Source: Anaerolineae bacterium (lineage in GTDB: Bacteria > Chloroflexota > Anaerolineae > S140-20). From it: a stretch of DNA of 10,134 bases. The stretch covers positions 1-10,134 of the forward strand of contig JALUTT010000078.1 of NCBI GenBank assembly GCA_027021705.1, in the 5' to 3' direction. How positions within the stretch are numbered: the stretch's first letter is position 1; each line of letters opens with the position of its first letter. This document shows, one piece after another, positions 1 to 10,134 of the stretch. The notes under the pieces are model-generated. The model was not told the DNA's origin. It saw nothing but the letters and a program-made list of their open reading frames with translations, and ran no database searches. The position numbers were made by a program, and so were the translations under genes.

Positions 1-479
1 CGCAGCGTGCCGCTGCTATCCCAGAGGGAGAACTCCACCTGGCGGGGGGCCGGGTTGGCGATCCGCAGGGTGTAGAACTCGCCGGTGGGCAGCCCCCCCA
101 CATACCCCTCGTTCCAGAGGTGCTGCGCCGGGTTCAACTGGGAGAGCCGGAAGGAGCAGCCCATCGTCGCCCCGCTATCCCCCACACTGCAATCCACCGC
201 CAGGTAGCGGTTCGCCTCGTCGTCCCGCAGTTGGGCGTAGAAGAGGTTCCAGCGGGCGTCGGGGTAGATGGTCGCCTTCCACTCCGCCCAGGCCCCTACG
301 CCGGTGAAGTTGAGCCGCTCCCTCAGCCGGATGCCTGCACTCTCGTTCCAGTCCGGTGTGTAGGTCTCCCCTCGGCTGCCGATGAGCAACCCGCCGCCGG
401 TGTAGAGTTGGATGCTCGCCTGCGTCCACGTCACCCATCGTTCGGTGTCCAGCGTGTCGAATTCGTCGGTGTACCCGTA
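1..479 (-). other. Globular, probably ConA/LamG-like beta-sandwich domain after the RHS repeats (partial)
   Basis: YGYTDEFDTLDTERWVTW...GLLIGS...WAEWKATI...FYTLRIA...VEFSLWD. The DEFD.LD...W start and the aromatic beta-strand pattern suggest a ConA-like fold. The fold call is inference. Confidence 0.45.
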
Positions 480-3400
480 TGTGGCCGGCAGAGGAATGGG
501 CGACCGGTTCCGGGCCGGACCTCGCCCCGGCCTGGCCCGTCCCCTCACCGGCACCTCCCGGCCGGCCCGCTCGACCGGCAGCAGGGCCACCGTCCGACCG
601 CCGGCCGGCATCACCACCGGACGCACCGCCGGCCCCTGCGCCCCCCCGACCGACCGGGCCGTCTCCCCACCGGCGCGGACCAGCATCCGCTCCCGGGCAA
701 CCGCCGCCACCGGCTCCCGCAGCTCCAGCGTCGCGCCGGGCCAGAAGACCTCGTAATGCTCCCCCACGTAGAGGGTCGTCCCCGCTTCCGTGATCTTCGC
801 CACCCGCACCCCGTCCCCGTCGTAGACGAAGCGGGTCACCGTCTCCGTCACCCCCTGCGTCCTCGTCACCACCACCAGCCGGTTCTCGGCGTCGAAGGCT
901 TGCCGGTAGGTGATCACCTCTGTTCCGCTCACCACCACCCGCAGCGTCATATTCCCCTTGGCATCGTAGGCGAACCGGGAACCGTCGTCCCCGCCCGTCA
1001 CCGCGTGCACGTGGGCCGGGTCTTCGTAGGCGTAGCGCACCGCCCCCTTCCGCCGCAGGTTCCCCCGCTCGTCGTACCCGTATGCCTCCTGATAGGGGGC
1101 CGGCCCTCCCGTCCCCTCGGCCTCCACCAGCCGGTCCAGGGAATCGTAGGCGAACCGCTGGCTCTCCCCCAGCACGCTGTCGGTGATCACCAGCACGTTC
1201 CCCACCCCATCGTAGGCATACGCCAACTGCTGCAACACCCCCTCCGGCCCTCGCCGCTCCAGCCCCGTCAGCCGCAGGGAGAGAGGATCGTAGGTGTAGG
1301 TCGTCTCCACCCCGTTGCCCAGGACCAGACCCGTCAGCCGGCCCGCCGCATCGTAGGTCGCCCCGGTGACGTAGGCCGCTGCCCCCACCAGCGTCGCCGG
1401 CCGTCCCCCGGCGTCGTAGGTCTGGGTCACCACCTCCCCGTCGGGATAGGTGATCCGCACCACCCGGTCCATCCCATCGTAGCCGTAGGTGGTGGTGTAG
1501 ACCCCCAGCCCCTCGAAGGCCCGGCTTTCCTCGATCGGCCGCCCCCGCTCGTCGTAGCGATAGTGAGCCGAACCGCCGGCATACGTCATCGAGGTCCGGT
1601 AGCCGATCCCCCAGGCCCCCTCGTCGTAGCCGTAGACCGCCAGCACCTGACCGCCTTCGTCCAGATCCGCCGTCCGGGTCACCCACCGCTTCCTCACCGG
1701 CCGGTCCAACTCGTCATAGTCAAAGACGACCCACTGCCCATCCGCCCCCTGCTGCCGGATCAGGTTCCCCACCGCGTCGTACTCGTATGTCCAATGTCCC
1801 ATATCGGGATCGTCCATCGCTTCCTTCCGGCCCAGCGGGTCGTAGGTGATCACCGTCGTCGCCCCCAGGGCGTCCTGCACCGCCACCAGGTTGCCCCGCA
1901 CATCGTAGGTGTAGACCGTCGTGGCGTAGAGGACCGGACCGCTCTCCACCGTCCCCGTGTACTCCTCTACCCGCGTCAACCGGCCGTAGGCGTCGTAAGC
2001 CTGAACCCGCCGGTGGCCGTTGGCATCCACCACCGTCGTGGTCCAACCGCTGTAGGAGCGCTCCTCGGCGGTGCCGTCAGGTCGCTCCACCCGCACCACC
2101 CGGCTCAGGGCGTCGTAGGTGGTCCGGGTGGCCGGCGTCTCCTCGGGCGGCGCCTGGTAGTCCGAGGAGAAGGCCGCCAGGAAGGGATGGGTGACCGTCA
2201 CCGCCCGCCCCAGGACGTCGTAGCCCGTCTCCTGAACGACCTGTTGACCGTTGGCTGCTTCGCTCCGGGTCTGCACCGGCCGCCCCAACCCGTCGTAGAG
2301 CCGGATGGTGGTGTAGACGCAATCGGCGCAGCCGCTCTCCTCCCGCCGCCGCTCCTCAACGGCGAAGGGGGCCGGCCCGTCGGCGTAGGTGGTGCTCACC
2401 GTCGGCATCTCGAAGCTGTCCCCGGGCCGGACCACCGCCGTCACTCGCCCGAAGGGATCGTAGCGATAGGCCGTCGCCGTCGCCTCGCCGTTCGGCCCCC
2501 ACTCCCGGTAGAGGGCTCCGAAGGCTGCCCCCTCGGCCTCCATCCCCGGCCCGTTCACCCCGTAGTACTCCCGGTAGCGACACCGCTCCAACGGCGTCCC
2601 CACCGCCTGACAGACCCGGACGGGGAAGCGGTGGTAGAGGTCGTCGTAGGTCGTCGTCGTCCGCCGGCCCAAGGCGTCCGTTTGGGCCGTTCGATTGCCG
2701 TAACCGTCGTATTCGTAGCTCGTCCGATAAGGACTCCCCACGGAGCCCTCTTCGACCCGCGTCGGCGCTCCCCGCTGCGGGGCCGCGTCCAAGGGCTGAT
2801 CGTCGTAGTAGAAGTAGCGCCGCGCCACCGCCAGGTCCGGGGCGTCCTCCGTCTGGATGCCCTCGTAGACCATCTCCGTCGCCACCCGATCCACGATCCA
2901 TACATCCGCCAGCGTGTTGACGACGAAGGTCCGCCGCACCGTCCGCTCGTCCCCGGTGACGACCGCGTCGCCGTAATCATACTCGGCCACGACGTTGCCG
3001 TAGTCGTCGTAGGCGTAGGCGACCCATCGCTGCACCGGGCCTCCTTCCGCCGCCGTCGTCGTCGTCACCGCCCGGACGTAGAAGAAGGCCGATCCACCCG
3101 CGTAATCCCACGTCGGCGTGACCACCCACCGGTAGCCCCAGGTCTGCGTCGTCCGCCGCTGCACCTCTCCCGCCGCATCGGCGATCTCCTCCTCGGCCAT
3201 CCGCCCCGTCAGCGGCCAGGCCAGCACGAAGCGCTGGGTCGCCCGGTAGAGCAGCCGTCCCCCCTCGTCGTAGGCCCGCTCTCGCGACCACTCGTACCCC
3301 TTCAGCCCCCAACTCCGAACGCCGTCGTCACAGGGGGTGTCGGTTGCGTCGTAGCAGGGGGGGCCGTAGTCGTAAACCCATCGTCCCACCTGGCCCATCC

Positions 3401-6400
3401 CGTCCAGGACCCGCCGTTCCCGCACCCGATAGTGGTAGCCGTACCGGTCGTTGACCACCGTCTGCTCGTAGTCCACCTCGAACCGCCCGCCGTAGCCGTT
3501 CTCCACGGCCACCAGGCGGCTATAGGGATAGCTTCGCCCGTTGGCCCACTGGGGACGGGTGTTCTCCAGGGCCTGGTAGGTGAAGGTCGTCGTCGGCAGC
3601 ACCGCCCCGCCGGCCTCCCCGCCCAGCCCGTACTCCCGGACCCAGGCCAGCAGCCGCACCTGCCCGTTGAAGGTGTACCCCGGCCGGTACTCCCGCACCA
3701 GCGACCCATCCTCCCACACCTGGACGCCGATCAGGTAGTCCTGCTGGAAGAAGAGGTAGTCGTCCCGGTCAAAGCGGTCCGCGTTCGGCGCGCCGGCATC
3801 ATCGGCCCGGGGCGCCCGCAGGAAGCGGACCTGTGTCCCCCAGCCGCCCCCTTCCTTCGGGTTGTACAGGATCTCCGACAGGTAGCCGGCCCGCTCACAG
3901 CGGTAGGGGTCGTTCTCCTCTTCGTCGTAGTGGAAGATCACCTCGTTGCCCCATCGGTCCCGGATCCGGTCCAGCCGCCAACGGTAGGTCGTCCGCCCCA
4001 GGAAGGCCACATCGCACAGCACCTGCTCGGCGTCGGGCTCGTAGCCGAACCGGTACTCGACCCCTTCTTTCGTCCTGACCACCCAGTAGGTCCCTTGCGC
4101 GTTGCTCTGGGTTGCTTTCTGCTCGATGTAGAAAAAGGCTTCCTCGTGGGTGCGATAGCGTCCCAGCCCCTCCAGGGTGGAAGGAGGCTTTCCCGACTCG
4201 GGGATCAGCGGGTAGGCGGTGCCGTTGATGAGCAGGGTGTACTTGTGGAGACCGGTGCAAAGCTGGACGTGACCGTTCTCGGGGTTGGACCAGGGGCACC
4301 AGTTGACGTCCCGGGTGATCTGGGGCACATCCAGGCTCCAGCCCAGCCCCACCCAGTCGGCTTGAACGTCGGCGAGGATTCCGTCCATCCGATCGCTGTG
4401 GTAGGTGAGGGCCAGGTCGGGTTGGAGCCCGCCCCGCCCTGCCGGCACCGCCAGCGGATAGCGGTAGCTCACCCCACCTCGGAAACGATCCACCGTTGGC
4501 TCGTTGACCGTCAATTGCCAGCCGTTCTCGCTGGTCACGCCGGCGGCGTAGTCGGAGAAGTGCTCCAGCGTCGTGGTGATCCGCCCCGCCGCCCATCCCA
4601 CCCCCCGCAGGGTCAGGTAGCGCCACTCCTCCTCGGTGCCGACGGCCCGGTAGGCCACGTAGGGCCACCACCCCTCCGGCAGCGCCCCCAGGTCGGCCAG
4701 CCCTGCCAGGTCTACCGTCAGCGTCACCGGCCGTTCAAACCGTAGGTCGGGCTCCAAAGAGAAGCGCAGCACCCACCCCCGCCGGTCCGGGGGCAGCGCC
4801 GGCCCAGGGTAGGCGGTCAGCGTCACCTCCCGCGTCGCCGTCACCGCCCCCGCCGGTGCCGCTACCGTCACCCGTCCATCGGCCGAGGTGACCTGTCCCC
4901 CCTCGGGCCCCAGCGTCCCCGTGGTCACCGTCCCCACCCAGAGGGTCGTCGAGGCCACCGCCGTCTCCGTCACCCCCTGCAGGCTCACCCGGGCCTGCCA
5001 GAAGCGCGGCCCTGCCTCCGTGCCGGCGACGACGGTGATGGAGACGGTGTGGGTCACCCGTCCCCCGGGGGCCAGCGGAGCGAGGGACCAAGAGGTCGGC
5101 CGGGCCTCCAACCCTGCGTCCAGGGTGAGCTGTACGTTGCCCGGCGGACTGTTCTCCACCCCGGTGTTCTCGATCCTTATCGTCCCCGTGACCACCTCTC
5201 CGGGCAACGCCAGGTCGGGCCGGGAGAGCAGGGTCACCGCCAGGTCGTTCTGGGCCGCCGTGCCCGTGACGGTGATGTAACGGGCGCGGAGCCGCCGGCT
5301 GCGCCCGTCCGGCCCTTCGACGGTCAGCGTCACCGTGTAGACCCCCGCCCGTCGGTAGACGTGGGTGTGGGTCGGGCCGGAGACGGTCCCGGTGATCCCA
5401 TCGCCGTAATCCCACCGGCGACGCTCGATGGTCCCCACCGACCGGTCTTGGAAAGTGACCGTCAGCGGGACCCCGCCCTCCAGCGGGCTCGCCTCGAAGT
5501 CGGCCCACAACGGCGCGTAGGGCTGGGCGAAGACCTCGTCCCGCGCCGTCTGCCACACCAACAGTGCCTCCGTCTCCCCCGTTCGGACCGCCAGCCCGCT
5601 CTGGGGCGCGTTCCCCACTTCTTCGACCAGCACCTCCTCGGTCAACGGGGTCCCGTCGCCGTCGAAGCGTCGGCCGTACAGGTCCGCTTGCCACCCCCAG
5701 TTCCGAAAGTCCTCCCACACCATCAGCAGCCCGCCGCCGCCGCCCAGCGCCCCCACCACCGGGTCCCGTTGGTCCTTGGCCTCCGCCACCAGGGCCACGT
5801 TCGTCCCGCTCAGCACGCCGCTCCCCTCGACCCACTGCCCGTACAGGTCGTACCCACCGTTCCGCCGGTCCCCCCACACCACCAAGTACCGGTCCGCTCC
5901 AGACCGGTAGGCCACCGCCGGCCGACGCTGGTCCCCACCGGCCTGGCTCAGGGCGAAGGGGGCTCCCTCCACCTGCCCATCCCCCCGCACGAAGCGACCG
6001 TACACGTCGTAGTTCCCGTCCCGCCGGTCCTCCCATACTACCAGGAAGCGGTCGCGTCCGCCGTCGTAGGCCAGCGCCGGAGCGGCCTGCACCGAGGCCG
6101 CCGTCACCAGGCTGAAGTCGCTCCCGCTCAACACCCCCGTCGTCGCAACCACCTGCCCTGCCAGATCCATCCCGCTGCGGGTGTCCCGCCAGACCACCAG
6201 GTAGGCTCCCGTCGCCTCGCCGTAGCCTACGACCGGTTCCGTCTGGGCCTTGCCCGTCGTGGCCGCGATGGGGAAATTCCCTCCGCTCAGGCTCCCGTCC
6301 CCCTGCACCACCTGCCCGTAGACATCCCCTTTGCCGTCCACCCGCGTGTCCTCCCAAACCACCAGGTAGCTCCCGTCGGCCGCCGCCGCCACCCGGGGCG

Positions 6401-9029
6401 CCTGCTGATCGCCCCCCGCCCCTGCTTCGGAGATGCGGAAGGGCTCCCCGATGGGCTCTCCCTCCGCCGTCAATCGCCGGCCGTAAACCGCCCAACTCCC
6501 TTCACCGTTGTCGGCCCAGACCACCAGATACTCGTCCCGCACCCCGTTGTAGGCTGCCGCCGGGTCCTGCTGCTGTCCCGTTAGCGGGCTGATGGCGAAG
6601 GCGCTCCCCACCAGGCCCCCGTCGGCCCCGATCCGTTGACCGTAGACGTCATAGTTCAGCCCGTTGCGGTCGTCCTGCCAGACCACCAGGCTGCCCCCCT
6701 GCCCCTCGGCGGCCGCGACGACGGGGTAGCGCTGGTTCCCCCCTTCGGCATTGACGGCGAAGGGGTCCCCCACCGGGCTCCCGTCGGCCCCCACCCGCCG
6801 GGCGTACAGGTCTCCCGACCGCTCCCAAGCCACCAGCCACTCCCCGGCCACCCCATCGTAAGCCAACGCCGGGTCCCGTTCCGTCGTCCCGCCCGTGGCC
6901 GCCAGAGCGACGTTCCCCCCGCTCAGGCTCCCGTCCCCTTGGACCACTTGACCGTAGACGTCTCCTTTGCCGTCCGTCCGTCGGTCGTACCAGACTACCA
7001 GCCAACTCCCTCCGTCGGAGTTGGCCGCCACCGCCGGCGTCTCCTGTCTCCCAGATCCCACGCCGACGGCAAACCCCACCGTCGGGTCCGATTCGTCCTC
7101 CGGCGTCCCCGGATTGTCCAGCAGCGTCCCGTCCCCCTTCACCCTCTGGCCGTAAATATCCCAGTCGGCCACGCCGGCCTCGGTCCAGACCACCAGGAAG
7201 GACTTCACCCCCGTCGCCTCGTTGTAGGCTACGTCAGGGTGGGTCTGCAGCCCGGCTGCACCGTTGACGACGAAGTTGCCCCCGATCAACTCCCCCGCCG
7301 TCCCCACCAGTTGGCCGTAGAGATCGTAGCCTCCGCTGCGGGCGTCCCGCCACACCACCAGGTAGCGGCCGTCGTCAGGGCTGTAGGCCACGGCCGGAAA
7401 GACCTGTTCCTGCCCCGTCGCCGCCACAACGAAGCTCACCGCCGGATCCGATTCGTCCTCCGGCGTTCCCGGGTTGTCCAGCAGCGTCCCATCCCCCTTC
7501 ACCCGCTGGCCGTAGACGTCACCCCGCCCGTCGGCCCGGTACTCCTCCCAGACCACCAGGTACTCGTCGGCCTGGGGGTTGTAGGCCACGGCAGGCCGCT
7601 GCTGGTCCTCCGGCCCTTGGGCGATGGGGAAGGGATCGCCCAGCAGCGTTCCATCGGCCCCCACCCGCCGCCCCATCAGGTCGCAGTCGGGGCTGAGGGT
7701 GGTGAAGGCACACCAGACGACCAGGTATTCCCCGGCCGTGGGGTTGAAGGCGGTCGCCACCTCGCGCTGCTGCTCCCGCTCTCCCCCCACCGCCACCGGC
7801 TGGCCGATCAGCGGGTCTATCACCACCGGATAGGTAGCCTGGGCCAGCCACGCTTCCGGCACCACCAGCCGCAGCCGCTGGCCCCGCAGGGAGAGCGTCG
7901 CCCATAGCTCCTGCCCCGCCGCGTCGCGCACCAGCGCTCCTCCGTAGGCCAACAGCGCCCGAGCCTCCCCCGTTCCTACCGCGTCGGGGTGGTAGAAACG
8001 AATTCCTTCCTCCGACGAGAGGACCACCGGCACCAACGAAGTGGTGAAGCGCCCCTCGATCACCAGGTCTCCCGAGGCCGGCGGAGGGCTCTCCAGAACG
8101 AAGCGCTGCTCCACCCCTTCGTTGAGCAGGACGTACTCTTCCCTCAGCCCCGGAGCTCGGCGGTAGCGGGCTTGGTTGTCCCTCACCTCCGGCCGCGGAG
8201 GACGCCCCCCGGCATCCCCCCGCCCCGACGCTTTGTACAGGACAGTCTGCCCCACCCGCACCCGCTCCAGGCGGAAAGTCAGCTCGGCCGCCCGTTCCGT
8301 TGGCCGACCGGGAAGATCGGTGCGAAAGGTGAAACCGTCGGCGTCCAGGAAAGCCCGATAGCGTCCGTTGGCCGCAGCCCAGCGCCCTTCCCCTTGGGGG
8401 TGCAGGGCGTTGCGCACCCGCTGCACCAGGTCGGCAGAGTCGGGCGGAGCGCCGGCCAGGCGCGTTGGACCGCCTGGGAGGACGACGGTGAAAGGAACCG
8501 TAGCGGTGATGGTGCCGAGATGGGCGACGATGCGGCCGGGACCGGACTCCGGCCCGGCGGTGAGGGTGAGCCGAACCAACCCCCGATGGGTCTGCCCTCC
8601 CGGAGCCGAGAGGGTGCCCCCCTCCGCCCGGAGGGCCACCGAGGTGCCGTCAACGACTTGGCGTCCCTGGGCGTCGGCCGCGAAGAGGAGAACCACGGCT
8701 TCCTGGCCGGGGTACAGGACGGTAGGTTCAATCAGGAGGGAGAGCAGAGAGGGAGGGGAGGCGGAAGCAAGGGAGGAGGTGGGAAGGGAGGGGGAGGGGA
8801 CGAGGGAGGGAAGGAAGACGGGGAGGTAAAGGCGGGGTGGGGAAGTGGAGGGAGGAATGAGCGACGGGGAGTCTCTGTCCGGGGCAGGACGGCCGGGAGG
8901 CCGCTCAAGCACACGGCTGGCCGTCGGCTGGTCGAAGGCCAGAGGGGCAGGAGGAATCGTGCTGCCTAGGGTACTGAGGATGGTCAGAACGTAGAGCCAG
9001 CGGACGAAGGCTTGAGGGATTGGGGACAT
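1..9029 (-). CDS. Giant secreted RHS/YD-repeat protein (polymorphic toxin/adhesin-like), >=3009 aa, 3' end beyond the left edge of the window
   Basis: Manual translation from ATG (complement of cat 9027-9029) finds no stop down to base 1. It begins MSPIPQAFVRWLYVLTILSTLGS and ends ...VEFSLWDSSGTL at the edge. It contains many YD repeats (YDPLGR, YDAVGNL, YDAAGRL, YDSLDRL, YDGDGVRVAK), an SpvB-like YPLAVPAGRGGLQPDLALTY...GLGWSL and a PKD WDYGDG motif. Third codon positions are strongly G/C, and an RBS is present. Confidence 0.96.
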   Translation of the reverse strand, partial: MSPIPQAFVRWLYVLTILSTLGSTIPPAPLAFDQPTASRVLERPPGRPAPDRDSPSLIPPSTSPPRLYLPVFLPSLVPSPSLPTSSLASASPPSLLSLLIEPTVLYPGQEAVVLLFAADAQGRQVVDGTSVALRAEGGTLSAPGGQTHRGLVRLTLTAGPESGPGRIVAHLGTITATVPFTVVLPGGPTRLAGAPPDSADLVQRVRNALHPQGEGRWAAANGRYRAFLDADGFTFRTDLPGRPTERAAELTFRLERVRVGQTVLYKASGRGDAGGRPPRPEVRDNQARYRRAPGLREEYVLLNEGVEQRFVLESPPPASGDLVIEGRFTTSLVPVVLSSEEGIRFYHPDAVGTGEARALLAYGGALVRDAAGQELWATLSLRGQRLRLVVPEAWLAQATYPVVIDPLIGQPVAVGGEREQQREVATAFNPTAGEYLVVWCAFTTLSPDCDLMGRRVGADGTLLGDPFPIAQGPEDQQRPAVAYNPQADEYLVVWEEYRADGRGDVYGQRVKGDGTLLDNPGTPEDESDPAVSFVVAATGQEQVFPAVAYSPDDGRYLVVWRDARSGGYDLYGQLVGTAGELIGGNFVVNGAAGLQTHPDVAYNEATGVKSFLVVWTEAGVADWDIYGQRVKGDGTLLDNPGTPEDESDPTVGFAVGVGSGRQETPAVAANSDGGSWLVVWYDRRTDGKGDVYGQVVQGDGSLSGGNVALAATGGTTERDPALAYDGVAGEWLVAWERSGDLYARRVGADGSPVGDPFAVNAEGGNQRYPVVAAAEGQGGSLVVWQDDRNGLNYDVYGQRIGADGGLVGSAFAISPLTGQQQDPAAAYNGVRDEYLVVWADNGEGSWAVYGRRLTAEGEPIGEPFRISEAGAGGDQQAPRVAAAADGSYLVVWEDTRVDGKGDVYGQVVQGDGSLSGGNFPIAATTGKAQTEPVVGYGEATGAYLVVWRDTRSGMDLAGQVVATTGVLSGSDFSLVTAASVQAAPALAYDGGRDRFLVVWEDRRDGNYDVYGRFVRGDGQVEGAPFALSQAGGDQRRPAVAYRSGADRYLVVWGDRRNGGYDLYGQWVEGSGVLSGTNVALVAEAKDQRDPVVGALGGGGGLLMVWEDFRNWGWQADLYGRRFDGDGTPLTEEVLVEEVGNAPQSGLAVRTGETEALLVWQTARDEVFAQPYAPLWADFEASPLEGGVPLTVTFQDRSVGTIERRRWDYGDGITGTVSGPTHTHVYRRAGVYTVTLTVEGPDGRSRRLRARYITVTGTAAQNDLAVTLLSRPDLALPGEVVTGTIRIENTGVENSPPGNVQLTLDAGLEARPTSWSLAPLAPGGRVTHTVSITVVAGTEAGPRFWQARVSLQGVTETAVASTTLWVGTVTTGTLGPEGGQVTSADGRVTVAAPAGAVTATREVTLTAYPGPALPPDRRGWVLRFSLEPDLRFERPVTLTVDLAGLADLGALPEGWWPYVAYRAVGTEEEWRYLTLRGVGWAAGRITTTLEHFSDYAAGVTSENGWQLTVNEPTVDRFRGGVSYRYPLAVPAGRGGLQPDLALTYHSDRMDGILADVQADWVGLGWSLDVPQITRDVNWCPWSNPENGHVQLCTGLHKYTLLINGTAYPLIPESGKPPSTLEGLGRYRTHEEAFFYIEQKATQSNAQGTYWVVRTKEGVEYRFGYEPDAEQVLCDVAFLGRTTYRWRLDRIRDRWGNEVIFHYDEEENDPYRCERAGYLSEILYNPKEGGGWGTQVRFLRAPRADDAGAPNADRFDRDDYLFFQQDYLIGVQVWEDGSLVREYRPGYTFNGQVRLLAWVREYGLGGEAGGAVLPTTTFTYQALENTRPQWANGRSYPYSRLVAVENGYGGRFEVDYEQTVVNDRYGYHYRVRERRVLDGMGQVGRWVYDYGPPCYDATDTPCDDGVRSWGLKGYEWSRERAYDEGGRLLYRATQRFVLAWPLTGRMAEEEIADAAGEVQRRTTQTWGYRWVVTPTWDYAGGSAFFYVRAVTTTTAAEGGPVQRWVAYAYDDYGNVVAEYDYGDAVVTGDERTVRRTFVVNTLADVWIVDRVATEMVYEGIQTEDAPDLAVARRYFYYDDQPLDAAPQRGAPTRVEEGSVGSPYRTSYEYDGYGNRTAQTDALGRRTTTTYDDLYHRFPVRVCQAVGTPLERCRYREYYGVNGPGMEAEGAAFGALYREWGPNGEATATAYRYDPFGRVTAVVRPGDSFEMPTVSTTYADGPAPFAVEERRREESGCADCVYTTIRLYDGLGRPVQTRSEAANGQQVVQETGYDVLGRAVTVTHPFLAAFSSDYQAPPEETPATRTTYDALSRVVRVERPDGTAEERSYSGWTTTVVDANGHRRVQAYDAYGRLTRVEEYTGTVESGPVLYATTVYTYDVRGNLVAVQDALGATTVITYDPLGRKEAMDDPDMGHWTYEYDAVGNLIRQQGADGQWVVFDYDELDRPVRKRWVTRTADLDEGGQVLAVYGYDEGAWGIGYRTSMTYAGGSAHYRYDERGRPIEESRAFEGLGVYTTTYGYDGMDRVVRITYPDGEVVTQTYDAGGRPATLVGAAAYVTGATYDAAGRLTGLVLGNGVETTYTYDPLSLRLTGLERRGPEGVLQQLAYAYDGVGNVLVITDSVLGESQRFAYDSLDRLVEAEGTGGPAPYQEAYGYDERGNLRRKGAVRYAYEDPAHVHAVTGGDDGSRFAYDAKGNMTLRVVVSGTEVITYRQAFDAENRLVVVTRTQGVTETVTRFVYDGDGVRVAKITEAGTTLYVGEHYEVFWPGATLELREPVAAVARERMLVRAGGETARSVGGAQGPAVRPVVMPAGGRTVALLPVERAGREVPVRGRARPGRGPARNRSPIPLPATYGYTDEFDTLDTERWVTWTQASIQLYTGGGLLIGSRGETYTPDWNESAGIRLRERLNFTGVGAWAEWKATIYPDARWNLFYAQLRDDEANRYLAVDCSVGDSGATMGCSFRLSQLNPAQHLWNEGYVGGLPTGEFYTLRIANPAPRQVEFSLWDSSGTL
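747..3518 (-). repeat. TcdB-mid-like region plus YD/RHS repeat shell
   Basis: RLVAVENGYGG, YAYDDYGNV, YEYDGYGNR, YDPFGRV, YDGLGRP, YDALSRV, YDPLGRKEAMDDPDMGHWTYEYDAVGNL, YPDGEVVTQTYDAGGR, YDGVGNV, HVHAVT, YDAKGNM, FVYDGDGVRVAK...TLYVGEHYEV. Confidence 0.92.
3576..4500 (-). other. SpvB/TcB-like N-terminal part of the RHS shell
   Basis: VDRFRGGVSYRYPLAVPAGRGGLQPDLALTYHS...WVGLGWSLDVPQITR...YWVVRTKEGVEYRFG...RWRLDRIRDRWGNEVIFHY...YLSEILY...LPTTTFTY. These are the typical SpvB-family motifs in the expected order. Confidence 0.85.
4540..4925 (-). other. ZU5-like autoproteolytic domain ending in HFS
   Basis: It starts GTLGPEGGQVTSADGRVTVAAPAGAV (ZU5-type GPEGG...PxGA), contains EPDLRFERPVTLTV, and ends ITTTLEHFSDYAAG. 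HFS is at 4554-4562 (aa 1490-1492). Confidence 0.75.
4935..5250 (-). other. DUF11/CARDB/NEW3-like Ig-fold domain
   Basis: NDLAVTLLSRPDLALPGEVVTGTIRIENTG...WSLAPLAPGGRVTHTVSITV fits the DL.V....PGE.VT.TI...N.G...L.PG pattern. Confidence 0.65.
5265..5510 (-). other. PKD domain
   Basis: ADFEASPLEGGVPLTVTFQDRSVG...WDYGDG(5397-5414)...THVYRRAGVYTVTLTV matches the canonical PKD signature. Confidence 0.9.
5520..7800 (-). repeat. 14 tandem ~54-aa beta-propeller-like blades (probably two 7-bladed propellers)
   Basis: The consensus Q..PAVAY.....YLVVW.D.R.G..DVYGQ.V..DG...G..F recurs 14 times. The LVVW-like cores lie near 7720, 7555, 7358, 7192, 6997, 6833, 6685, 6523, 6360, 6197, 6040, 5880, 5722 and 5560. 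Confidence 0.85.
7812..8430 (-). other. N-terminal domain ending in a YPVVIDP motif (WapA/RHS N-terminal type)
   Basis: ...EEYVLLNEGVEQRFVLE...LAYGGALVRDAAGQEL...LRLVVPEAWLAQATYPVVIDP, with the motif at 7812-7832 (aa 400-406). This resembles the WL....YPVxIDP ending of N-terminal domains in Gram-positive RHS/WapA-like and other secreted proteins. Confidence 0.6.
8485..8735 (-). other. Bacterial Ig-like (Big_1/invasin-type) domain
   Basis: IEPTVLYPGQEAVVLLFAADAQGRQVVDGTSVALRAEGGTLS...GLVRLTLTAGPESGPGRIVAHLGTITATVPFTV resembles the Big_1 pattern (DAxGxxVxDGTxV...G.L...G...TL.AG). Recognised by eye. Confidence 0.6.
8734..8900 (-). other. Ser/Pro-rich low-complexity linker containing a YLPVF motif
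   Basis: Translates as ...SPSLIPPSTSPPRLYLPVFLPSLVPSPSLPTSSLASASPPSLLSLL. The + strand is an almost pure purine tract here. Confidence 0.8.
8937..9029 (-). other. Putative Sec signal peptide of the RHS protein
   Basis: MSPIPQAFVRWLYVLTILSTLGSTIPPAPLA: one Arg, a hydrophobic stretch, then a Pro/Ala-rich c-region. The cleavage site is uncertain. Confidence 0.55.
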
Positions 9030-9036
9030 GGTCGCT

Positions 9037-9042
9037 CTCCTC
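9037..9042 (-). promoter_or_regulatory. Shine-Dalgarno sequence of the RHS gene
   Basis: The minus strand reads GAAGAGGAGAGCGACC-ATG, with GAGGAG 7 nt before the ATG. Confidence 0.85.
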
Positions 9043-9057
9043 TTCGTCGGGGGTGGG

Positions 9058-9093
9058 AAAAACAACCCCGCCGGCTATCTCAAGCCGGCGGGG
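9058..9093 (-). terminator. Intrinsic terminator within the 5' leader of the RHS gene
   Basis: A perfect 11-bp stem CCCCGCCGGCT/AGCCGGCGGGG (9066-9076 with 9083-9093) and a 6-nt loop are followed on the minus strand by TTGTTTTT (9065-9058). It ends ~30 nt upstream of the ATG. Confidence 0.85.
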
Positions 9094-9284
9094 CCTTGTG
9101 CTACGATGGGGGCTGCCGGGGTAGGCCCTGCCGCTCCGTCGGAGGCCCCGGGCACGCTCTCTGTCCCGGTGCCTCTCCCCTTTCTGCCGACGGACGCGAC
9201 CTCGGACCTAACCCGGGCCTTGCCCGAACCTCGGCGATCCTTCTCAACGAACAGCTTCGTGCCGGGGTACCAGGCACTGACACA
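9058..9284 (-). ncRNA. Candidate cis-regulatory structured leader RNA (attenuator/riboswitch-like, family not recognised)
   Basis: It contains a long interrupted hairpin at 9116-9216 whose G-U pairs form only on the minus strand, small hairpins at 9259-9277 and 9247-9260, a terminator, and a competing 8-bp pairing (9143-9150 with 9089-9096). Confidence 0.5.
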
Positions 9285-9290
9285 GAGCCC

Positions 9291-9299
9291 AGGGTAGCA
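9291..9299 (-). promoter_or_regulatory. Putative extended -10 promoter element (TG-n-TACCCT)
   Basis: The minus strand reads TGcTACCCT, matching TGnTAnnnT. The hexamer starts 10 nt downstream of the last TCTAAC repeat. The predicted +1 is about 9284-9283. Confidence 0.55.
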
Positions 9300-9306
9300 G
9301 GAAGAA

Positions 9307-9345
9307 GTTAGAAAAAGGTTAGAGAGTCGTTAGAAAACGGTGAGA
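9307..9345 (-). promoter_or_regulatory. Four 11-bp-phased direct repeats (TCTAAC x3, TCTCAC x1): putative winged-helix activator (SARP/OmpR-type) binding array
   Basis: The + strand has GTTAGA at 9307, 9318 and 9329 and GTGAGA at 9340. The period is exactly 11 bp, in an AT-richer intergenic patch that overlaps the -35 region. Confidence 0.7.
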
Positions 9346-9387
9346 GCGGGCCGTCCGGCAGTAAGGGCATTCCACGTCACCACTCTG

Positions 9388-9782
9388 TCATAGCGCTTCC
9401 ACCATCTCCTGCATCCGTGCGGCGTCAGGATGCAGGTAGCGCGATGTCGTCTCCAAGTTGACATGTCCCAAGAGCGCCTAGAGCGTTGCCAGGTCTCCTC
9501 CCCGGCGCAGAAAGCGGGTGGCGAAGGTATGCCGCAACACGTGAGGCGTAACCCGGGAGACGCCGGCCCTTCGCGCGGCGGCTTGGACCATCCGTTGGAC
9601 GGCCCGGCTGTCCATCCGCCGCCCTGTTCTGGTGAGGAAAAGAGCCTCCGTCTCCCCCAGGTTGGGGCGTACATCCAGGTAATCCCGGAGCACCCTCCGT
9701 GCTTCCGCCGAAAGGGGCACTCGGCGCTCCTTCAACCCCTTGCCCCGGCGGACCAGCACCCATCCCGACCGTGGTTTGAGAA
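9388..9782 (-). pseudogene. Tyrosine recombinase/integrase (XerC/XerD-like) pseudogene: C-terminal catalytic fragment with an in-frame stop
   Basis: LKPRSGWVLVRRGKGLKERRVPL...LFLTRTGRRM...[53 protein letters not shown]. The GKG.K.R, HxLRH, LLGH and catalytic Tyr motifs are present. TAG at 9478-9480 sits where the conserved Gln is expected, the true stop is TGA at 9388-9390, and the N-terminal half including the first catalytic Arg is not seen. Confidence 0.9.
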
Positions 9783-9902
9783 ATTCATTATGGGCAAGCT
9801 CACCCCCCTTTTTCGACCATTTTACGAAGCCCAGAGCCAATTTCGGCTATCTGTAAGTCCCCAACTTGATATGCTCACGTGGGAGCCCTGCTGATTACTC
9901 AG

Positions 9903-10005
9903 TTCATCCGCGTTGGACCACCGATGACACGGATGGCGCGGATAGACACAGATTTCTCAAGAGACATCCGCGCCGACCCGTCGCACCCGTGTCTATCCGC
10001 GTCCC
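9903..10005. repeat. REP-like imperfect palindrome of CRCGGAT / ATCCGYG motifs
   Basis: The left arm is GACACGGATGGCGCGGATAGACACAGAT. CGCGGATAGACAC (9937-9949) is the perfect inverse of GTGTCTATCCGCG (9989-10001), and GGCGCGGAT (9935-9943) is the inverse of ATCCGCGCC (9966-9974). Confidence 0.7.
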
Positions 10006-10134
10006 CCCTGCCCAAGAGACATCCGCGCCGACCCGTCGCACCCGCGTCTATCCGCGTCCCCCCTGCCCAAGAGACATCCGCGCCGACCCGTCGCACCCGC
10101 GTCTATCCGCGTCCCCCCTCCCTGCCCAAGAGAC
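9958..10134. repeat. 55-bp tandem repeat (3 full copies plus the start of a 4th), continuing to the right edge
   Basis: The unit CAAGAGACATCCGCGCCGACCCGTCGCACCCGYGTCTATCCGCGTCCCCCCTGCC starts at 9958, 10013, 10068 and 10127. Periods are 55, 55 and 59. There is one T/C difference at 9990 and a 4-nt insertion in copy 3. Confidence 0.95.

Follow-up and report, generated by a model that had tools for sequence, protein, structure and literature searches.

A leader terminator ahead of a giant SpvB/RHS gene in an Anaerolineae genome: a candidate attenuator downstream of a predicted TTCTAAC promoter array

The DNA analyzed in this study, hereafter the window, is the entire 10,134-bp contig C78 (JALUTT010000078.1) of an Anaerolineae bacterium, whose 5.19-Mb genome (G000) has 66% GC, consists of 183 contigs and is 95% complete. 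The five sequencing runs containing this DNA are labelled as hydrothermal vent metagenomes. On the minus strand of the window lies the start of a giant gene, whose ATG at 9029-9027 opens a frame of 3009 codons (>9 kb) that leaves the contig without a stop. Its translation begins with a signal-peptide-like N-terminus and matches the Pfam families RHS_repeat (PF05593, 5e-41, six stretches), SpvB (PF03534, 1.9e-13), PKD, CARDB and DUF6443. With RHS repeats and an SpvB domain both present, the predicted product belongs to the giant RHS/SpvB (Tc-like) proteins, and it is probably a secreted, toxin-like and costly protein. The gene is the sole one of its kind in the genome. Ahead of its start codon are a structured leader that ends in a predicted terminator and, further upstream, an array of TTCTAAC repeats (Table 1). 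In the initial annotation of this DNA, the leader was taken for a new attenuator or riboswitch with a terminator/antiterminator switch. Our results are consistent with a candidate attenuator of a known kind and lend better support to the promoter array than to the leader element.

Table 1. Positions of the features in the window and of the related promoter arrays elsewhere in the genome
Feature	Position	Strand	Basis or description
Giant SpvB/RHS-repeat gene, start	3..9029	minus	translation and Pfam
Shine-Dalgarno sequence GAGGAG	9042-9037	minus	7 nt ahead of ATG; read from sequence
Predicted intrinsic terminator	9054..9095	minus	13-bp stem, 6-nt loop, tail GUUUUUCCCA
Long interrupted hairpin	9111..9219	minus	minimum-energy fold; 110 nt, 42 pairs (including extension to 9225/9108)
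First, branched leader hairpin	9221..9276	minus	predicted in minimum-energy fold of 9290-9025
Predicted -10 hexamer TACCCT	9291..9296	minus	extended by preceding TGC; 10 nt after last repeat unit
Three direct repeats TTCTAAC, CTCTAAC, TTCTAAC	9307..9335	minus	motif scan; exact 11-bp spacing
Whole promoter array of the window	9335-9291	minus	
Tyrosine recombinase (integrase) remnant	9391..9768	minus	PF00589 and reading frames
Cut repeat copy	9880-9781		first 100 nt only; repeat in >20 copies across the genome
Tandem 55-60-nt repeats	10134-9960	minus-strand reading order	3 units; sequence and blastn
Further arrays of the genome	C36:19835, C40:4538, C48:136233, C56:136691, C73:49898, C82:8521, C99:103797, C108:9981, C108:46806, C110:7317, C147:9547		

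A consensus scan returned one terminator, on the minus strand only, with a stem at 9095-9064 of 13 pairs (10 of them G-C), a loop of 6 nt and the tail GTTTTTCCCA. Folded alone, it reached -28.8 kcal/mol with a z score of -4.89, and none of 200 shuffled sequences was as stable. The strong minus-strand terminator of the initial annotation was thus recovered, with a stem of 13 pairs in place of the 11 bp given there. A G+C-rich stem-loop followed by a U-tract on the transcribed strand is what defines an intrinsic (Rho-independent) terminator, and the element is predicted to be one. Its U-tract ends 28 nt and its stem 34 nt ahead of the ATG of the RHS gene. Moreover, no TAnnnT hexamer was read from the sequence between 9100 and 9030, a stretch that includes 9058-9030, where a transcription start would assign the terminator to an upstream transcript only. 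Given the 28 nt to the ATG and the lack of a TAnnnT hexamer, there is no room for a separate promoter of the RHS gene. Since the promoter array lies upstream, the terminator is probably inside the transcription unit of the RHS gene. Standing between the likely promoter, with its -10 hexamer at 9296-9291, and the ribosome-binding site, it would have to be read through by RHS transcripts, as the initial annotation had reasoned. Upstream on the same strand, the gene closest to the terminator is the broken remnant of an integrase, whose end at 9391 is ~295 nt away, and the reading frames include no intact upstream gene on this strand to which the terminator could belong.

Similar to the terminator, the rest of the leader was more stable than shuffled controls, a comparison that had been proposed along with the annotation. 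The leader folded whole (9290-9025) had a z score of -3.20, and 2 of 200 shuffles were as stable. Its minimum-energy fold contains a branched hairpin, then a long interrupted hairpin, in which all 34 pairs of the six helices listed earlier are present, including one G-U pair in each of the two helices said to contain them. The hairpin carries the one-sided purine bulge described before, a 12-nt stretch (CAGAAAGGGGAG) at 9186-9175. On the minus strand, the hairpin (9225-9105) folded with -70.1 kcal/mol and a z score of -4.13, and none of 200 shuffles was as stable. On the plus strand the values were -61.6 kcal/mol and -1.74, and 12 of 200 shuffles were as stable. Given these two z scores, the preference for the sense strand that had been deduced from the G-U pairs is real. 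The RNA forms a single long interrupted hairpin there, without a multi-helix junction or a pocket. A search of 9030-9290 and its surroundings (8900-10134) against Rfam 15 at a permissive threshold gave chance-level matches only, of which the best was to P5 sRNA (E 0.7; 20.9 bits versus a threshold of 60), in agreement with the earlier failure to match the leader by eye to known riboswitch classes. Three other origins of the structured stretch were considered and rejected. A copy of the palindromic repeats of the genome was rejected given that neither blastn nor a covariance model found a second copy. An integron attC site was rejected by eye, as the arms are without the attC core. A tRNA-derived attachment site was rejected because a scan of the window for tRNA and tmRNA genes found none.

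The direct repeats are located between the integrase remnant and the leader hairpins and are oriented toward the RHS gene. They are probably a binding-site array for a response regulator of the OmpR/PhoB type. In Pho-box-type promoters of OmpR/PhoB-family regulators, direct repeats recur every 11 bp, the last one being 10 nt from the -10 hexamer, and there is no -35 hexamer. Similar to the Pho-box promoters of Escherichia coli PhoB and cyanobacterial SphR, the array in the window has 11-bp repeats that end 10 nt before the predicted -10 hexamer and replace the -35 hexamer, an arrangement by which it is a predicted OmpR/PhoB-type promoter. Different from those promoters, the unit is TTCTAAC, and the putative target genes are for secreted proteins, polysaccharide functions and an NRPS-like protein, not for phosphate functions. 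From the array we infer that transcription probably starts near 9284, which would give a leader of ~255 nt, the length estimated in the initial annotation.

The whole genome was scanned for arrays of two units at a spacing of 10, 11 or 12, allowing no more than one mismatch across both units. The scan identified 12 loci, in which every pair was at spacing 11 and none at 10 or 12. The arrays have 2-4 TTCTAAC-type units each, and in 8 of the 12 a TAnnnT hexamer lies exactly 10 nt past a unit slot. The exact 18-nt array pattern had 23 matches, distributed over 10 of 41 related genomes, versus 1 match for the reversed control. Judged from the look of their translations, the genes that follow the 12 arrays encode secreted proteins, glycosyl- or sugar-transferases and proteins with polysaccharide and sugar-nucleotide functions, as well as an NRPS-like ligase, an ATP sulfurylase and a hybrid sensor-regulator. 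The array of C36 precedes a gene for a hybrid regulator-kinase. The 12 array promoters thus look like a regulon with a conserved motif, which would tie the RHS gene to genes for secreted proteins and polysaccharides. This array is the better-supported regulatory result of this study, compared with the leader element. That the TTCTAAC units are integrase arm sites was rejected by eye, as they are also present at 11 further promoters and, beyond this genome, in 9 others. A literature search for TTCTAAC gave only matches that, in the portions of text available, were unrelated.

Terminators shortly before start codons were also found elsewhere in the genome. Listed as perfect stems of at least 8 pairs (at least 6 of them G-C) with at least 5 T in 8, the genome has 267 distinct strong terminators. 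Thirty-three of them, the one of the RHS gene included, are positioned 23-66 nt before a Shine-Dalgarno sequence and start codon of a same-strand open reading frame of at least 150 codons. Rfam searches of the other 32 identified three T-box leaders (E 1.9e-15, 1.5e-16 and 3.6e-15; 74-80 bits, under the curated threshold of 93 bits), one L10 leader (E 2.3e-4; 42.3 bits versus a threshold of 44) and two ends of tRNA operons, and gave no match for 26. The same search did not find a T-box leader (RF00230) in the window. From the end of the stem to the start codon, the distance is 35, 43 and 40 nt for the three T-box leaders and 35-61 nt for the T-box and L10 leaders together, compared with 34 nt for the RHS gene. 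Moreover, the stem and U-tract of the RHS terminator are at least as good as those of the T-box leaders. The T-box and L10 matches indicate that this organism uses terminators near start codons as attenuators. Similar to the T-box leaders of the same genome, the RHS leader combines a promoter, a long structured leader and a terminator, the latter placed 34-43 nt before the start codon across these loci. Different from them, however, it has no Rfam match, credible antiterminator, known sensor or conservation. Both T-boxes and Chloroflexi are reportedly mentioned in PMC2494555 and PMC3766115, as far as the available excerpts show. Among the 26 loci without a match are genes that, from their first residues, resemble greA, pyrH and argC, and some of the 26 loci may be undescribed attenuators.

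A similar layout, without sequence similarity, recurs at two other giant genes. The homologous gene of a Caldilineaceae genome (G354:C114), whose product is 37% identical to the RHS protein at the N-terminus, has a TTGACA-16-GATATT promoter and a leader of ~315 nt with a terminator (-34.1 kcal/mol, z -3.92) ~40 nt before the ATG. The second giant gene of G000 (in the region C49:39800-39975) has 1951 codons and a signal-peptide-like start. It is preceded by a TTGAAA...TGTGTTACAAT promoter (-10 TACAAT) and a leader of ~150 nt, in which a 12-bp G+C hairpin with a poor U-tract is located 23 nt before the ATG.

Giant RHS/Tc-like genes come at a high cost and may harm the cell that carries them, and their control in uncultured Chloroflexota is poorly understood. 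We consider it an even call that the leader is an attenuator, the terminator of which ends a share of the transcripts in vivo, thereby setting the level of the RHS gene. An activator-dependent promoter (three TTCTAAC units, 10 nt and TGC-TACCCT) would start transcription near 9284. The RNA would fold into two stable hairpins and then reach the strong terminator, where most polymerases would stop and release a short RNA of ~230 nt. Only the transcripts that read through would carry the ribosome-binding site and the >9-kb gene. The terminator would therefore add a second checkpoint to that of the promoter, and the expression of a costly and probably toxic giant gene would be kept low. Together, a response-regulator promoter and a leader terminator would give a simple two-step safeguard. 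Such an element would be an orphan attenuator candidate of a known kind, not a new RNA class.

Both termination in vivo and any regulation of read-through are what we infer. Even if the leader is an attenuator, the chance that read-through is regulated is in our view less than half. If it is regulated, we think that a protein bound to the hairpin or its bulge, or the kinetics of the polymerase, is more likely to be responsible than a small-molecule aptamer. A more specific proposal, that the hairpin and its purine bulge dock an undescribed RNA-binding antiterminator or other trans-acting signal, would place the RHS gene under two-key control, in which the promoter is opened by a two-component regulator and passage of the polymerase through the terminator depends on a second signal. 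We regard this as quite unlikely. If true, the same logic would govern the giant secreted-protein genes of C49 and G354:C114, without sequence similarity.

A number of results weigh against an attenuator. A homologous leader was not found by a DNA search of 40 relatives. The covariance model of the hairpin matched only the hairpin itself in its own genome and nothing in the 40 relatives, and its best match in 15 loci of homologous genes had an E value of 1.6. A metagenome scan with the N-terminus of the RHS protein gave 342 pattern matches and no relative, and a scan with an alignment of the N-termini gave 6 loci, none with a usable upstream region. A scan of species-representative genomes returned 9 loci, mostly ones found by the other searches. 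The collection of homologous leaders that the initial annotation had proposed for a covariation analysis therefore yielded none. Likewise, none of the matches listed in a literature search on Rhs, riboswitch, intrinsic terminator and leader was about an RHS leader, in the parts of the texts available. By these searches the leader is an orphan present in a single copy, and it bears no sign of selection. Four DNA runs were covered, and in other samples the leader was nearly identical letter for letter, with no difference over 217 nt in X2 and with none and one over 151 nt each in X3. The sole variant, 9132 C>T in one X3 contig with a depth of 3, turns a G-C pair of the hairpin into A-C.

The layout is also not general among distant homologues. 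Among 400 other genomes of the class, 24 have relatives of the N-terminus of the RHS protein (420 aa), or 25 of 401 when its own genome is counted. Among five distant homologues with a recognizable start, one has a strong leader terminator, the Caldilineaceae gene described above. In one other (G099:C86), a terminator-like hairpin of 7 bp is located 135 nt ahead of the GTG, but it is weak (-12.5 kcal/mol, z -1.15, equalled by 27 of 200 shuffles), and in the leaders of the remaining three (G001:C62, L030 and L032) no leader terminator was seen. The upstream region of G001:C62 carries two TTCTAAC units. Within G000, terminator-like hairpins were found in the leaders of only 2 of the 11 other array promoters, and the -10 hexamer TACCCT of the RHS gene is weak. 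The 26 of 32 terminator-before-start loci that are without an Rfam match may be plain terminators of upstream genes. In addition, none of the five runs containing this DNA is on record as RNA. Finally, the RHS terminator has a sibling at C47:37275-37334, to which it is 83% identical over 60 nt, flanks and loop included. The sibling is located 27 nt past the stop codon of a gene, where it is placed as an ordinary 3' terminator. The terminator module may thus have been copied within the genome. Given this sibling and the debris of mobile DNA around the leader, the terminator may have arrived by accident.

The main rival explanation starts from the last point. According to it, the hairpin and the terminator are left from mobile DNA or from a copied 3' terminator module and sense nothing. 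Their only effect would be to insulate the RHS gene from transcription entering from outside, or to lower its expression, and this gene may be decaying or have poor expression. We consider this explanation to be rather unlikely. Apart from the sibling at C47, it draws on the 1.1 kb upstream of the leader, which consists of tandem repeats, the 100-nt cut end of a repeat and the broken integrase gene, on a deletion form in X2 and X5 that marks the locus as unstable, and on the failure to find the leader conserved in the relatives searched. However, a conserved promoter array is located between the debris and the hairpin and is aimed at the gene, and an insulator against outside transcription would be expected upstream of that promoter, not between it and the ribosome-binding site. 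Moreover, the gene is intact across 3009 codons, and plain DNA debris does not predict a hairpin that is stable on the sense strand alone. The promoter-like array, strong terminator and stable fold also make up the anatomy of a small-RNA gene, and it was considered whether an independent small RNA of ~230 nt (9284 to ~9056) has a function of its own, to which read-through into the RHS gene is secondary. This is improbable, as Rfam gave no match, neither blastn nor the covariance model found a second copy or homologue in the own genome and the 40 relatives, and the RHS gene would then be without its own promoter, given the 28 nt available. The sense-strand open reading frame within the stretch looks non-coding, which does not separate a small RNA from a leader.

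The riboswitch put forward in the initial annotation would use the hairpin as an aptamer for a metabolite, with the 3' arm of the hairpin swapping between the hairpin and the 5' arm of the terminator. A terminator is present in the leader, the 12-nt purine bulge could form a pocket, and the 8-nt complement between 9150-9143 and 9096-9089 exists. However, when the leader was dinucleotide-shuffled 2000 times, 299 of the shuffles (15%) also had a match of at least 8 nt to the 5' arm of the terminator, as did 429 (14%) of 3000 random stretches of 190 nt from the genome. The match is thus at chance level, as the accompanying caveat that chance pairings are common had anticipated. Forcing the 8-nt helix costs 14.5 kcal/mol (-111.5 versus -126.0 kcal/mol), and its ensemble probability is ~0. 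The four lower helices of the hairpin close a loop around its 5' strand, and therefore the 8-nt helix would need a pseudoknot or the opening of the whole -70 kcal/mol hairpin. The two mutually exclusive folds as originally drawn are therefore unsupported. An alternative antiterminator helix, 9290-9281 with 9100-9091, is part of the minimum-energy fold and would leave the terminator with 7 pairs; it was not relied on because half of it is upstream of the predicted transcription start. Given also that there is no multi-helix junction, no Rfam family and no homologous leader, hence no covariation, and that an RHS toxin gene is without obvious metabolite logic, a metabolite riboswitch is very improbable. 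Slightly less probable still is attenuation of the pyrBI or leader-peptide type, in which a ribosome translating a short leader frame blocks the terminator stem. A 60-codon frame (GTG at 9283 to TAG at 9103-9101) ends 6 nt before this stem, and another frame is open into the terminator loop. However, the G+C contents of the 60-codon frame by codon position are 0.68/0.77/0.65, with GC3 below GC2 as in non-coding DNA and different from the 0.74/0.53/0.83 of the RHS gene. In addition, it has no Pfam match and no Shine-Dalgarno sequence before its GTG, the candidate starts of the other frame are inside the stable hairpin, and frames of such length are common by chance at 66% GC. Processive antitermination by a specialized NusG paralogue of the LoaP or RfaH type is the one we find hardest to believe. 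Long operons with a leader hairpin and a terminator and with extracellular products are the usual clients of LoaP and RfaH. Similar to LoaP/RfaH-dependent leaders, the RHS leader has a hairpin and then a terminator before a very long transcription unit, the product of which is extracellular. Different from those systems, however, only one NusG-family gene (one PF02357 match) and no paralogue was found in the 95%-complete genome, which counts against a LoaP/RfaH-type system.

Upstream of the array, the recombinase remnant covers positions 55-149 (E 6.5e-22) and 153-171 of PF00589. Its N-terminal third is absent, and an in-frame TAG (9480-9478) is located directly ahead of the LLGH motif, which makes it a pseudogene. 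Most copies of the repeat at 9781-9880 are positioned ~27 nt from a contig end, and the repeat is therefore probably an insertion-sequence end at which the assembly breaks. Within this repeat falls the only sigma-70-like consensus match of the region (TCGAAA-18-CATAAT, 9816-9787). In the deletion form, contigs of X2 and X5, which are two other vent samples of one study, fuse 8696 directly to 9869. They are without the 1172 bp from 8697 to 9868, which hold the repeat end, the integrase remnant, the entire leader, the ribosome-binding site and the first 110 codons of the RHS gene. An in-frame stop is located just upstream of the 8696/9869 joint, where no letters are shared. Arrays similar to the tandem repeats at 9960-10134 were found in C44, where they open the contig and are 95% identical, and, with a more distant similarity, in C179, C82, C92, C162 and C2.

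Within the RHS protein, residues ~420-1180 (window 5490-7770) consist of a long series of ~55-residue units, in which the signature 'LVVW..D.R....D(V/L)YGQR' recurs and over which the Pfam search gave no match. The final 41 residues of the frame are 100% identical to C21 (C21:3819-3941), and because of this identity the gene probably continues on C21. A 66% identical piece is present at C151:3-221.

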